NCBI GenBank assembly: GCA_951406725.2
Contig: OX597816.1
Span: 148,924,001 to 148,988,000, forward strand
Origin: Octopus vulgaris
Lineage: Eukaryota
DNA: 64,000 bases
Reading direction: 5' to 3'
Made by a program: the position numbers. How positions within the stretch are numbered: the first letter of the stretch is position 1; every line of letters starts with the position of its first letter. Of this stretch, positions 38,301 to 64,000 are shown in pieces.

Positions 38301-41300
38301 TTTTGCCCATTGAAGGATTTGAACTCACAACAGCAAGTTAACAAAATACATAACCTGCACAATGCTTTAGCATTTAAACTGGTCATATCTGGCCCAAATA
38401 GTCTATCCATTTTATGTTCAGATTGACCGGATTTTATTTCCCACATCTACCCTGCAAAGTTGTTCTAAGACTAAATAATCACATCATCAAAATTTTGAAG
38501 TTAAGATAATGCAAGATTAATCCAAGCATCCGTGAGACAGAACATCGGTTTCCAAAAGTGATCCTGTGCAGACTGGTTCGACTCAGTCTTGAAATCTCTA
38601 CCCTGATTGATGCCAAGTAATCGGCACTCATTGAACATCTGAACAACCCCTCATGTTCCACGAAACTCACCAGATTCAAGGAAGTCAAGTTACTCTGCCA
38701 AAGAAGGATTTGCGAGATCAAGAATCAATGGAGGCAAGCCAAAGCTGTCCAGCTCCAATCCTTTGCCAACAGCTGTGACATGAGGAACTTTTTTGCTGGA
38801 ACCAAGGAAATCTACGGTCCCTAAAGATCATCAACATCCCAGCTGAAAACAGCAGACAACTCAACTGTCATCACTGAGAAGGATGGGATTCTTCATTGTT
38901 GGAAAGAACACTTCGAAGCCTTGTTGAATCACCTGTCCACTGCTTCTGAAGACCTGCTGAAAAGCATTCCTCAACACCCTGTCAGACCAAGACATGGCTA
39001 CAACGGTTATAAGGGTAGAGAAGATACAGTTACAGAAGCCTCAAACTAATGAGCTAAATCAGAAAAGATCAGTTTTAAAGTCAGTACAAGGAAAGTTCTG
39101 ATTGGACAAGATGCAGTTTGTTTGTGTTAAGTAATAGAACTGTGGATACCACATTTCTAAGGGGACAACTGCAAGAGAATTTCATAGTTAAGAACAAATC
39201 ACTACATTTTTCTGGTGTTTGACAAGGTCCATGCTCTCTGGTCTGATGAACACTAAAGAAACAAGATGTAGATTAACTGTTTGCAAAAAAACCATGCCAG
39301 AGTGCTGTGTAAAGATTAGCTTGGTAGTAAATTCAGTGAATAATTTAGTGTACAGCTGCATCCACCAGCTGCTCTGGCAACAACTCATTGATTCATTATA
39401 TTTCATAAGGAACTTTAAATGCTGGCTTGATTCTTGTAGTGGAATCTGAAGAGTTTGGAGTTGGGGTGAAAGTAACGAAGAACACACAATCCCAGTTCAA
39501 TGTAGAAAATGGCTTTGCTCAAAATGTAAAAAAGGAATAATGTATAGATTTGTATATAAGTCACACCCTCTTTGTGTTTATAATAATCACATGTTGATTT
39601 TCAGTCTTGTTCAAATAATAATAAAAAAAAAAGACAGCTGAAATAATTCTAATTATTGCCAATGTAGTTGAGTAAAAGCTTGGAACCATAGATATCATAG
39701 CAAGCTCAAACAGATTGACTGGCGCTTTTAAATCATCACTCCTGATTGACTGACAAGGTTTGCGTTTGTATGTGTGTGTGAAGGCACATGGCTCAGTGGT
39801 TAGAGTGTCAGGCTCACAACCATGAGGTAGTGAATTTGATTCCTGGACTGGGTTGTGTGTTGTCTTCTTGGGCAAGACATTTTATTCCACATTGCTCCAG
39901 TTTACTCAGCTACAGAAATGAGTTGCAGCATCACTGGTGTCAAGCTGTATCGGTCTTTGCCTTTCCCTTGAACAAGATCAGTGGCATTGAATATTGTTAG
40001 AAAGCAACATTGATGGCATTGAATATTGTTAGAAAGCAAGAAAACCTTTATGTTCAAATTGGATACAAATCATAAAATAAACAATCGTTAACAATTAGCT
40101 TTTCAAATCTTTCTACATACATAATCATAGGAAATTTCTATCTTTAAGGCACAACTTTTACACCACCTACCATTATCCATTTGCCTTTCAAGTCTGCACC
40201 CATGTAACCATCTCTAAAACCACAGAGGTCTTAAAATGTAAAAATTACTTCTTGTTTTCTACTGTCCAGTATTACAATATAAAAAGTCTCCAAAGATAGT
40301 CAATTGTAGTCAAGCAATATAAAAATAAAAACTTGGTGAATAAAATAATTTATTAAAATATATGGTATCAAGTAAGTTCATCTGTTAAATCTATAGAGAT
40401 ATCATTAACTTGTGGTGATAATGACACATTATTTCCTCTGGATGTAGGACCAAAAGAACAGGCACTTTTTCTACTGATTACAGATTGACTGAAAGGTTTA
40501 TAAAAATTTCTTCCAATGAGACTGGGCTGAGAACACATTTTTTTAACAATACAAGATACAGGAGATAAATCATTGGCCAGAGAGCTTTCAGATGTATTGG
40601 ATTTCATATTAGATTTTTGTACATTTGATGTTGCTCTACTATCTGTGGTGTCTGAAAATGGCACAGCAAATACTTTACTGGGTACAGCTGAAGAATCTGA
40701 TGGCGATATATGGGATATCCGAGAGGTGCTTAAATTTCTTTTGGATAGATGTGATATATTATGATTTTGTTGACTATATATACTGTTTACAGGTTCCAGG
40801 GATTTAGTTTGTGCACTGGGGACAACAACTAAACTAGTAGAAGAGTTTCTGTTTTTACCTACATCTAATGAACTGACTTCAGACTTCCTTTCAATGGCAA
40901 TGTTTGTATTTTCTTTATGTTGTGTTAATTCAACTACAGAAATGTCATCTTTTATATTAATAATATCTTTAGTGTTAGTTGAAAGAGGTTTGGATGATGA
41001 TGGCTGAATTGGTGTTATAGTAATGTTTGATGATACAGATGCTTTAACTGGTATTTGGTGATATTGTGGATGATGTAATGTGGTTGCAAGTTGACTGTTA
41101 CACAAATACTCAAATTCGCTCATATCTAATTGTTTTGCAATAATTTTTAACTGTTGTAAAATATCTGGATCAAGATCAAGAATCCCGTTGTATGCATATT
41201 CTGCAAAAGCAGTTAAAGCTTCTTTGCTAACTTCCTGTGGTAAGTTAATTTGGAGAAACTTGTGAGAAAGCATATCTGCACCAAACACTGACAGCAGTTT

Positions 41301-42293
41301 AGGACACACAGCAGCTAGGACAACTTTATGCATCTGAAAAATAAGCAAGAGAAAAAGAGAAACAGTAAAAAGAAAATTATAATATAATCTCAGTTTATGA
41401 GAAACTGCAACAATGAAAAGCATGAGGACTACATATACTATATTTTCAAGCATATAAGTTGAATCTTTCAGAGCAAAATTTGTAACTAAAAAAGGCACAT
41501 CAACTAACACACCAAGACAACACTGAAGAACCAAAATTTCCATGTGAAATGCAGCAAGTTTTAAAATGTTGAGCAATCATCAGCCATTTATAGAGGTTTT
41601 CCATCAATACATATACTTATTTCCATCTCTATAAATGGCTGATGATTGCTCATCATTTTAAAGCTGATTTAATACTTACAATGTTTAATAAAATGATGTA
41701 GCGTGAAACGATCGTACCAAATTACTGAAGATATTCTTGTTGCTTACTTTGATTATATATATAAATTATTAAAATTATAATTTAGGGTATCTACAAGATA
41801 CTGCCATGCTGAAAATAGCAGCCAGGAACTGACTCTAAGACCACTTTAAGTGTTCATATAGCACAGGGAGAGAAGACAAAAAGACAAAATAAAACTAGAA
41901 AAAATTACTGGATAATTCCAGATCTCGGACCTCTGGCTTTGCATTTAGAAATGCTTTACCTCATCAGTGGAATATATGCAGAGAGAAACACAAATACATA
42001 TATATATGTATATATATAAATACAACATACGAATACTTACATATATGAACATATACATACATACATATGCACATATGCATCAAGACCAGTTTAAAATGCC
42101 CACTTCTTAATTCCATGTGCAATATGGTTAAAATATCACCACAGTAAATACAATGACAAAATAAATTTAAATTTATATAAATAAGGATAAGATCGTTAAT
42201 TTAAATTAAAAAACAATCTTATCAAGTGGCCAGCATGGAAATAAAAATCTTCAAATGTAATAAGTATAAAAAAACCACATTATTTATGGGATG

Positions 42294-62300: not shown

Positions 62301-64000
62301 GTTTTCTTAATCAAAATTGTGGACAGGCTGCAGTACTAAAAGTTGACATCACAAGAGACTTCATATCATAAACCTTCTTAATACATTTATCCTACATATA
62401 TCCTTGGTCTCTATAATTAATTGCAATATCAATGATCTCACAAATAAATTCTATAAGCTGATCTTTGTTATATTTCTCCTATTGGTGTGTGATGCTTAAA
62501 AATGTATACCTGATATCTACCTTGAGACTTGTACGATAAGTATTTGTCCTCTGTTTCTGAGCTTCCAATCTTGCCTGCCTTTGTTCTGGTGTTTCTGCCC
62601 GCCGTCTAGCAAGCTCTCTTTGCCTATGATTTCGTAATCTTAATTGCCTTTCTTCTGCAGTTTCATTTTTCCGTCTTTCCTTTACCCTCATAGCATTCCT
62701 ATAAGCATTTGTCTTCTGTTTCCGATCTTCTAATCTTGCTTGTCTTTGTTCTGGTGTTTCTGCCCGCCGTCTAGCAATCTGACTTTGCCTATGATTTCGT
62801 AATCTTAACTGCCTTTCTTCTGTAGTTTCATTTTTCCGTCTTTCCTTTGCCTTCATAGCACTCCTGGTGAGACGACCCAGTGCTGATACTTTGGGAGGCA
62901 TAACTTCATAACACTAGAAAACAAGACGTCCTATTATCAGAGAACATTGACACATTTTCTAGATATCTAAAACTAAAATTAGTACAATATCTTTTAAACA
63001 TGTTACAAGCAACAAATTATACCAATAATCCTTTCCCAATTATGTCTACAGAAAACTAGTATTTATATGAAGATTCCAACTGAAATCTTAGTGTATGGTC
63101 TTCACATTGCACAATATTGCTCTTTATAAACGGAGTGTAAGGGATTAGCTCCCCTTGAAAACTATTGTAAATTCGCCATTTTACTAGCGATTAAACTTTG
63201 TATATACTAACACGTATTGGGTCCAAAATCTAAACTCCTGACATACATACATACATATATATATATATAAAGCTGCTTTGCTGGAGTTAACGTGAGAAAA
63301 GTAGTAAAATGTGATTTAAAACATTGCCAAGATGGACACATATTTTAGTAATTAGTTCGATTCCAGGTTTGTAGTTTTATATCGAATTTAGAAATATCAG
63401 GGGGTTTTTTATTTAACACGAAGACAATTGGATATTTACCCGATATTTCATTTTAGATCTTTCAACATCACAAGGATACATATGTCAAGGAAATTTAATT
63501 GTAACACAAATTCTGAATTCGACGAAATCAATGAGTATCTACCTTTTAATCTATTCTGGTGATCGCTGCTCGTTTATTTTGTAAATAATGAACAGATTGG
63601 AACGATTGGGTGGTTTACTGATTTTGAAGTCACAGAATAAACTATATATTTTCGTGTTTAATTGAAGCACGTTCATAAATTATTCTTATTGATTCTAATT
63701 TTTATAAAGTCCCTAAGGCTTTGTATTTTCTTCCCAGAAAATTTGTTATAAGAAACAAATCGATTACAGAGTTGTTCTTTCCTAATATTTTTTAAAACGA
63801 ATTTTGCGTAATGAGGAGTTTTTCTAAAATTTTCTATACATTATATTTAATTAGGATATAGTATCACATATATGTAAAAGATAGTTATATGGTATAAATA
63901 TTTACCCATATATTATTCACTAAAGCGCGACAGGCATGATTAACCATTCATCGCAAAAAGAGAAAAACAATATAGGTAAGCAGGAGGAAACAAAAAATTA

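Follow-up and report, generated by a model that had tools for sequence, protein, structure and literature searches.

We analysed 64,000 nucleotides of Octopus vulgaris DNA (NCBI GenBank assembly GCA_951406725.2, contig OX597816.1, positions 148,924,001 to 148,988,000 of the forward strand), a stretch with 0 N that is called the window here and whose own numbering is used throughout. Two paralogous genes lie in tandem on its minus strand, gene 1 (62901-58531) with four exons and gene 2 (55728-40371) with six. Judging from the exons and the database proteins that align to them, we consider it probable that these are two real genes of an octopod family in which a linker, a split BTB domain and a low-complexity tail stand behind a gene-specific DNA-binding head encoded by a single exon. 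Their exons are listed below; labels of the form P0001 denote database proteins or NCBI gene models related to the two genes.

62521..62901, minus strand: gene 1 exon 1, head; ATG at 62901, 127 codons, four STPR units, phase-0 donor AAG/GTAGAT
61392..61489, minus strand: gene 1 exon 2, linker; 98 nucleotides (nt), MKMIQKKKNK...SHDIW, phase 0>2, donor TG/GTATGT
60948..61293, minus strand: gene 1 exon 3, BTB-A and spacer; phase 2>0, ending ...STVM/GTAAGT
58531..59577, minus strand: gene 1 exon 4, BTB-B and tail; Ser/Thr-rich tail of 260 amino acids (aa), stop TGA at 58528-58530
55258..55728, minus strand: gene 2 exon 1, head; ATG at 55728, 157 codons, ZSWIM3_N/FAR1 (WRKY-GCM1-type) zinc module, phase-0 donor GAT/GTGAGT
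47063..47244, minus strand: gene 2 exon 2, linker 1; phase 0>2, donor GG/GTAAAT, 59/60 identical to P0069 residues 158-217
46681..46969, minus strand: gene 2 exon 3, fossil half-BTB; phase 2>0, after a 93-nt intron, ending ...HAVM/GTATGT, 81/93 identical to P0069
44589..44800, minus strand: gene 2 exon 4, linker 2; phase 0>2, donor AG/GTGAAT, 67/70 identical to P0069 residues 315-384
42746..43058, minus strand: gene 2 exon 5, working BTB-A; phase 2>0, ending ...STVM/GTAAGT, 100/104 identical to P0069
40371..41333, minus strand: gene 2 exon 6, BTB-B and tail; stop TGA at 40368-40370, 92.9% identical over 322 aa to P0069 and 48.5% to P0018 of Argonauta

The searches were made with single exons or with full-length database proteins, P0001, P0018 and P0069 standing in for the spliced products. 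Each of the 10 exons has an open frame and intact splice sites, GT..AG bounds 8/8 introns across the two genes, and the phases are coherent at every join. One phase scheme is common to both genes (head exon 0, linker 0>2, BTB-A 2>0, BTB-B 0). In each, the BTB-A exon ends with ...STVM followed by a GTAAGT donor (60948 in gene 1, 42746 in gene 2), and the BTB-B exon, preceded by a pyrimidine tract and CAG, opens with VHK in gene 1 (59577) and MHK in gene 2 (41333). The BTB-B and tail exons of the two genes are 38% identical over 318 aa (E value 4.9e-48), and the working BTB-A exon of both genes retains 14/14 of the residues that are invariant in 17 family proteins. Pfam recognized a BTB domain in the BTB-B exon of gene 1 (1.8e-12, 47.8 bits) and of gene 2 (4.5e-5, 24 bits, cut-off 20.5), and by this profile both genes belong to the BTB/POZ family (PF00651). 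Downstream of the BTB, the scanned window exons of the two genes contained 0 Pfam domains, C2H2 fingers included. An earlier reading of this DNA, made from the sequence alone (the sequence-only reading), had described a BTB split at ...STVM/xHK, the same exon phases in both genes, a Ser/Thr tail that can be aligned between them and no BACK, Kelch or C2H2 domain behind the BTB, and on these points our results agree with it.

Gene 2 proved to be more elaborate than that reading had allowed, since it had missed both the degenerate BTB-A exon (46969-46681) and the second linker (44800-44589) and so fell short of six exons. Its junction 55258>47244, from the head to the first linker, is used by models P0069 and P0016. 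P0069 (O. bimaculoides LOC106877743, 811 aa) is colinear with the six exons at 90, 98, 87, 96, 96 and 92.9% identity in order; its BTB scores 31.5 bits with Pfam, and 7/7 of its sequence matches in the PDB are BTB domains (best 6n34, 7.1e-8). The fossil exon is 33.6% identical to the working BTB-A of gene 2 over 110 aa (E value 1.4e-10) and retains only 7/14 of the family-invariant residues. Gene 2 therefore has two copies of the pair of linker and BTB-A, of which the upstream one now acts as a spacer. Linker 2 is homologous to the linker exons of the family, with weak matches to the linkers of P0072, P0076 and P0080, with which it could be aligned. The possibility that the two BTB-A exons are mutually exclusive was rejected, as P0069 includes both and the frame is restored by the linker exon between them.

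The STPR and FAR1-type heads

The STPR repeats that the sequence-only reading had seen in gene 1 were recovered by profile. The head open reading frame (ORF) at 62479-62913 matched the Pfam family STPRs (PF21107) at 3.6e-7, with 31 bits against a cut-off of 27. In the exon itself four E-[TS]-x6-R units were located (exon residues 25, 48, 80 and 103), a number reached by 1/2000 shuffles. The unit spacing of 23, 32 and 23 describes a 2+2 arrangement with a 9-aa spacer between units 2 and 3 and not an uninterrupted array. There are four units, where the paralogue models have two, because a 165-nt in-frame tandem duplication (62536-62865, minus strand, 2.0 copies, 90% identical) doubled them; this duplication is absent from the annotated proteins found by searching with the STPR exon. 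The best PDB match of the exon was FMBP-1 (5d23, E value 0.0057), and its look-alikes in the atlas were STPR clusters. Yu et al. 2016 (PMC4856987) describe the STPR of FMBP-1 and ZNF821 as 23-residue repeats with Glu1, Thr/Ser2 and Arg9, usually four in number, that bind AT-rich DNA along the major groove. The gene 1 exon resembles them in having four units with the defining residues, and differs in its 9-residue spacer and in the two-unit heads of its paralogue models.

Between head and BTB, gene 1 follows a path other than the one first proposed. The junction 62510>61293 of the sequence-only reading is in frame, and 0 database models use it; P0001, P0004, P0005, P0007 and P0008 run 62521>61489 and then 61392>61293, through the 98-nt linker exon, which is itself present in P0001, P0004, P0006 and P0084. 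The closest annotated protein, P0001 ("transcription factor Ken-like isoform X2 [Octopus sinensis]"), is identical to gene 1 at 348/349 positions of exon 4, 114/115 of exon 3 and 28/32 of the linker. STPR-type units, then a linker, then a BTB occur in P0001, P0004, P0005, P0007, P0008 and P0009, and a search with the BTB-B exon returned 15 proteins, of which the 12 that are named are all from Octopus. The BTB of full-length P0001 scores 56.6 bits and covers profile positions 4-108 of 110. An AlphaFold model of P0001 gave long helices across the STPR units and linker (residues 6-110), with a predicted local distance difference test (pLDDT) score of 67-89, as would be expected of an all-alpha repeat. 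Two models, P0002 and P0006, lack a head and start near the gene 1 BTB-A exon, and the in-frame ATG found five bases past the acceptor in both BTB-A exons (61289 in gene 1, 43054 in gene 2) makes 61289 a possible head-less start of gene 1.

The sequence-only reading had held both heads to be of transposon type, and for STPR this was not supported. Among the longer matches of the STPR exon 6/6 were octopus BTB proteins and 0 were transposon proteins. A possible link of STPR to Helitron or another transposon was dropped, as no such relative was present among the STPR-exon matches.

For the FAR1-type head of gene 2 the claim fared better. On ZSWIM3_N (PF21599), which has a cut-off of 27.8, the head ORF (55228-55788) scored 41.2 bits (2.6e-10). 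When 1.84 billion representatives were searched in full with HMMER, 53 proteins reached an E value of 0.001 or better; ZSWIM3_N and/or FAR1 domains are present in 52/53, the exception being the fibronectin protein P0043, and two of the 53 (P0020, P0044) carry MULE/RNaseH-like transposase domains as well. Only 1/53 was closer than E 1e-30, which argues that the head is not a multi-copy protein family. The C, GC and HNH signature noted earlier is conserved among these relatives: C86, G109 and C110 are invariant and H132, N133 and H134 occur in at least 90% of 11 sequences, with C86 also in at least 90% of the 53. Which of these residues bind zinc is presumably as in related modules, an assumption that we make by analogy.

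When 52 of the head relatives were aligned to the window with tblastn, 48/52 matched this exon only, and no transposase remnant was found elsewhere in the window. Nor was the catalytic part of an autonomous MULE present: MULE or ZSWIM1-3 RNaseH-like domains numbered 0 in 154 ORF translations of the window (8+78+68). One relative that has a transposase core, P0020, can be aligned as far as the donor at 55258, which fits a donor recruited within a former transposase frame. Together these comparisons support the view that the FAR1 head derives from a MULE-type transposase whose catalytic part is gone. FAR1/FHY3 and ZSWIM1/3 share with it the N-terminal WRKY-GCM1-type zinc module of MULE transposases; they retain the transposase core and a SWIM finger, whereas gene 2 has only the DNA-binding module, followed by the BTB.

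The AlphaFold model of the FAR1 exon has a pLDDT of 82.2 and four strands (54-61, 79-86, 113-119 and 122-129). Its top Foldseek matches in the PDB were AFT2 (4lmg; E value 0.29, probability 0.77-0.82, template modelling score 0.36/0.45) and then AtWRKY1 (2ayd; E value 0.61), which is suggestive only of membership in the WRKY-GCM1 fold class; a PDB sequence profile search with the FAR1 alignment gave no credible match. The ratio of observed to expected CpG reaches 1.33 in the FAR1 exon, with 0.95-1.31 in the sequence flanking it, compared with 0.36 for the whole window, and a CpG-rich island extends over 54700-56260, a richness that would fit an unmethylated first exon or promoter. The ratio is intermediate at the STPR exon (0.65) and its upstream flank (0.75).

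Two of the 53 head relatives (P0018, P0033) also contain a BTB. P0033 (282 aa) has ZSWIM3_N followed by a canonical BTB that is dissimilar to the octopod one (E value 4.8), and is probably a separate fusion of the same two kinds of domain in another animal.

The octopod family and its hub gene

Fused models of a head and a BTB are known at NCBI from O. sinensis, O. vulgaris, O. bimaculoides and Argonauta hians. A ZSWIM3_N/FAR1 head is joined to the BTB in P0069 of O. bimaculoides and in P0018 of Argonauta hians, a 766-aa model with ZSWIM3_N at 19-111, BTB at 435-538, a tail like that of gene 2 and a head 45% identical to the gene 2 head. In these predicted proteins two domains read in one frame from separate exons, as in a host-transposase fusion, and this holds for the FAR1 head; a transposon origin of the STPR head is not supported. 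The 17 proteins found in a search with P0018 belong without exception to Octopus species or Argonauta. When a tree was built from the common region, P0018 and P0069 formed a clade with 100/100 support, which implies that the FAR1-BTB fusion predates the split of Argonautidae and Octopodidae, separate families of Incirrata (taxonomy lookup). The STPR "Ken-like" genes also form one clade (7 rows, 100/100).

Pfam was run on the other 16 of the proteins found with P0018. In 11/16 a head lies N-terminal to the BTB and in 5/16 the BTB stands alone; 0/16 have a domain C-terminal to the BTB, and no Pfam domain follows the BTB in the 31 family models overall. The heads of the 11 comprise ZSWIM3_N, CENP-B_N with HTH_Tnp_Tc5 (two kinds), FLYWCH (three models), THAP (two), DUF3504 (two, one below cut-off) and QRICH1 (below cut-off). 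With STPR, at least six kinds of head (ZSWIM3_N/FAR1, THAP, FLYWCH, CENP-B/Tc5 HTH, DUF3504 and STPR) are predicted in front of one cassette. The BTB starts anywhere from residue 131 to residue 578, unlike the ZBTB/Ken-type layout of an N-terminal BTB and C-terminal C2H2 fingers. The reversed order proposed by the sequence-only reading, with the DNA-binding domain ahead of the BTB and opposite to mod(mdg4), is thus found in the 11 models and in the isoforms described below. The same reading's lineage-specific family of such proteins holds in its main thrust, and was understated in size, THAP, FLYWCH, CENP-B/Tc5 and DUF3504 heads belonging to it as well.

Outside the window a single hub gene combines several such heads. 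An identical 534-aa C-terminus stands behind differing heads in six isoforms of O. bimaculoides LOC106877732 and likewise, within their own set, in three of O. sinensis LOC115209932. This C-terminus begins at the linker exon and consists of linker, BTB and tail. The hub proteins P0070-P0079 (LOC106877732, and LOC115209932 from O. sinensis and A. hians) carry heads of the THAP and FLYWCH types, two CENP-B_N/HTH_Tnp_Tc5 pairs and DUF3504/QRICH1-like heads, and further hub heads have a weak match to a winged helix-turn-helix or a possible zinc finger; isoform labels run up to X18. A multi-head organization of the mod(mdg4) or lola type is therefore found in hub isoforms P0070-P0078, whereas each window gene has one head only. 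No further DNA-binding domain was detected in 86 window ORFs of at least 85 aa or in 68 minus-strand ORFs of 45-84 aa from 39905 on, a scan that left 85 small plus-strand ORFs outside. Tree branches are shortest for the hub genes, and long stems lead to the paralogues with a single head.

The tail contains short motifs conserved across 17 family proteins. It has no Pfam match, its atlas score of 0.80 is at chance level, and AlphaFold models it in P0001 as disordered (pLDDT 22-33).

Family members appear in public databases as "uncharacterized", "Ken-like", "ZBTB11" and "stress response nst1-like". Drosophila Ken and Barbie has an N-terminal BTB and C-terminal C2H2 fingers, neither of which is seen in the octopod proteins, and the NCBI name "Ken-like" appears to reflect BTB similarity only. 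That the architectures were already annotated had been named as a point that would count against the sequence-only reading. This applies in part: models of four octopod species are in public annotation, unrecognised, as unnamed or misnamed entries, and a 2023 paper, the only one found that touches on the family, notes a BTB on octopus CENPB and THAP proteins. In the part consulted, that paper (Mukherjee & Moroz 2023, PMC10027918) reports that most Octopus CENPB and THAP factors carry a BTB/POZ domain, takes it for part of the transposon and counts one "FHY3" in Octopus; the shared exons, STPR and the hub are not described in that part. We found no literature that pairs STPR with BTB in the present sense, the supplements of PMC10027918 and PMC12062965 being places where some such proteins may be listed, and none that names any of the six family LOC numbers tried.

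The rest of the window and alternative explanations

Reverse-transcriptase sequences lie next to the two genes and within gene 2:

56261..58352, minus strand: retroelement block with reverse-transcriptase ORFs; GC 0.46, RVT_1 8.9e-5 at 57511-57903
51430..52259, plus strand: reverse-transcriptase fragment in intron 1 of gene 2, not part of the gene; RVT_1 7.3e-8 at 51430-51726

The retroelement block fills the 2.8-kb gap between the stop of gene 1 and the start of gene 2 and is part of neither gene. A mariner-type relic occupies 14705-15629 (minus strand), with Transposase_1 (5.7e-25, ORF 14705-15292) and a Mos1-type HTH_48 (1.4e-9, ORF 15345-15629) in different frames. An ORF at 406-714 (minus strand) matches the AAA ATPase family PF00004 (1.9e-7) and probably belongs, as an exon, to the gene that follows gene 2 downstream. 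Minisatellites are present at 22867-23809 (26 nt x 36) and 8405-8809 (22 nt x 18.7), as is a (TGTA)72 array at 2365-2652, on account of which all six frames are open at 2168-2697. Rfam gave 0 matches.

Several observations weigh against our reading of the two genes and of their heads. The exon joins rest on automated, predicted NCBI gene models. Among database proteins none has the exact four-unit STPR exon of the window, the closest being P0001 with 61% identity over 71% of the exon (58/95). Because both the head and the linker (28/32) differ from those of P0001, gene 1 is a close relative or variant of the annotated gene and not its copy. In the database models the STPR heads consist of 2 units and do not reach the Pfam cut-off (P0001, E value 0.035; P0010, E value 0.0065). 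Comparison of the two STPR copies gave a ratio of non-synonymous to synonymous substitution rates (dN/dS) of 0.72 on the basis of only 15 changes, 4 of them synonymous and 11 non-synonymous, a value that does not demonstrate constraint. On the FAR1 head the profile PF03101 itself scored 2.4e-4, with 22.2 bits, below its cut-off of 28.1, and the exon model had 0 Foldseek matches at 0.001 or better (best 0.29). The AlphaFold model of P0001, made with 17 family rows, has a mean pLDDT of 41.8, with residues 112-250 and 306-569 below 50 and residues 251-300 at 56-76, and the BTB fold was not recovered with confidence; we attribute this poor modelling to the shallow alignment, which we cannot prove. 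Given the head-less P0002 and P0006, heads may be optional. Finally, P0016 (348 aa) ends after the fossil half-BTB by way of another last exon, which is 53% identical to window 45875-46015 (minus strand).

A rival explanation makes heads and BTB cassettes independent transcription units, the fused NCBI models being chimeras or the product of predicted read-through. Gene 2 would then be a short FAR1 gene, like P0016, followed by a head-less BTB gene starting at 43054, and gene 1 would start at 61289; the early end of P0016, the head-less models, the ATG just inside both BTB-A exons and the predicted nature of the joins would all follow. We consider this unlikely. Phases match at all the proposed joins of both genes, the same fused order recurs in the models of four species, including the single 766-aa model of Argonauta hians, and a head precedes the BTB in 11/16 family models. 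The linker exons of gene 2, which have no start codon context, would be orphaned. Conservation is much higher in the six exons of the long model (87-98%) than in the private last exon of P0016 (53% identity), so that this short isoform may be an annotation by-product. That the two genes are instead decaying pseudogenes of an expanded family, making no working protein, is a good deal less probable still. One half-BTB exon is indeed degenerate (7/14 invariant residues), the dN/dS between the STPR copies is 0.72, and the family is large and tandemly duplicated. On the other hand, reading frames and splice sites are intact in 10/10 exons, 14/14 invariant residues remain in the working BTB-A exons, the tail motifs are conserved across 17 proteins and the orthologues are open in O. 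bimaculoides and Argonauta.

Least probable of all, and in our view barely credible, is that the FAR1 exon was never domesticated and is a piece of a MULE-type transposon, resident and recently active, that happens to lie upstream of the BTB gene. Relatives with transposase domains (P0020, P0044), the high CpG content of the exon, as in young insertions, and the other transposon relics of the window could be taken that way. Against this, there is no transposase remnant elsewhere in the window; 1/53 database matches is closer than E 1e-30; and the ORF of the exon is intact up to a GTGAGT donor that fits the consensus. The exon is also 90% (O. bimaculoides) and 45% (Argonauta) identical to heads at the same place in the orthologous protein. 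Two tandem genes, each with its head spliced to a shared type of BTB cassette, thus remain the reading that we prefer.

Proposed origin and significance of the head-BTB genes

For genes built as we propose, the most likely origin would begin with a transposon landing upstream of a BTB gene. A donor within the transposase frame would be spliced to the phase-0 acceptor of the linker exon, and the new first exon kept. Gene 2 would have taken up its second linker and BTB-A copy either through a duplication within the gene or because two tandem copies were read through, its upstream half-BTB then decaying into a spacer. By analogy with the domain families concerned, the head would bind DNA, the STPR head following the major groove of AT-rich DNA as FMBP-1 does and the FAR1-type module reading a specific site. 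Pairing or multimerisation would fall to the BTB, whose partners might include paralogues and head-less isoforms, and the tail would recruit cofactors.

The nearest precedent for such a capture is, by analogy, vertebrate KCTD1 isoform b, in which insertion of an element upstream put a Crypton domain before the BTB while a head-less isoform persists (Kojima & Jurka 2011, PMC3212892). There too a transposon-derived domain stands N-terminal to a BTB, and the octopod hub proteins P0077 and P0078 likewise have DUF3504 before theirs; KCTD1b differs in its T1-type BTB, in the tyrosine-recombinase nature of the remnant and in being a single capture, as against many kinds of octopod head. Vertebrate ZBTB11 has an N-terminal integrase-like zinc-binding domain of mobile-element origin, then a BTB, and forms the largest such set, 97.6% in chordates (Almeida et al. 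2025, PMC12062965). The order of a mobile-element domain before a BTB is the same as here, and NCBI names P0008 "zinc finger and BTB domain-containing protein 11"; ZBTB11, however, has C-terminal C2H2 arrays, whereas the octopod proteins have no domain after the BTB.

In the tetrapod host-transposase fusions (KRAB- and SCAN-transposase proteins; KRABINER, SETMAR) a transposase DNA-binding exon is spliced to a host regulatory domain, and fused and parental transcripts often coexist (Cosby et al., 10.1101/2020.05.07.082677). In these the host domain is usually N-terminal and the transposon gives the acceptor, whereas the octopod transposon part comes first and would give the donor; the term BTB has 0 occurrences in the text consulted. 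Drosophila mod(mdg4), with about 30 isoforms, most with FLYWCH (Bonchuk et al. 2024, PMC11426971), and lola combine one BTB cassette with many alternative DNA-binding modules, FLYWCH among them, and their octopod counterpart is the hub gene. The octopod layout is the opposite, heads being N-terminal and BTB and tail C-terminal, a comparison of layout and not of BTB sequence. N-terminal heads imply alternative first exons or promoters instead of alternative 3' exons, and trans-splicing is neither known nor needed in the octopod genes.

It is tempting to speculate further that octopods own a platform for domain capture, a chromosomal cluster whose conserved cassette acts as an exon trap for upstream transposons that offer a phase-0 donor, with roles that extend to a regulatory network and to silencing. 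We put this forward tentatively and regard the full proposal as rather doubtful. On such a platform the slowly evolving hub would collect many alternative heads, from THAP and FLYWCH to two pogo-type HTH pairs and the Crypton type, tandem duplication would fix single heads in daughters such as the STPR and FAR1 genes, and the fossil half-BTB of gene 2 would be a scar of the capture or duplication process. As one type of BTB is common to all members, they could pair mutually and with head-less isoforms, and if they do, this pairing would give rise to a combinatorial network. Given that transposases are the source of most heads, the proteins may have as a first task to find and silence the transposon families of their origin, in which case the family would be a cephalopod counterpart of the vertebrate KRAB systems.

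The capture of transposase domains by splicing has been studied chiefly in tetrapods, KRAB being the host domain. The octopod genes would extend the same principle to a mollusc lineage, in reversed order and with a BTB from the host, and would offer a second, independent system for asking how exon trapping builds regulators. They also provide concrete candidates for lineage-specific transcription factors in cephalopods, whose genomes are rich in transposons.

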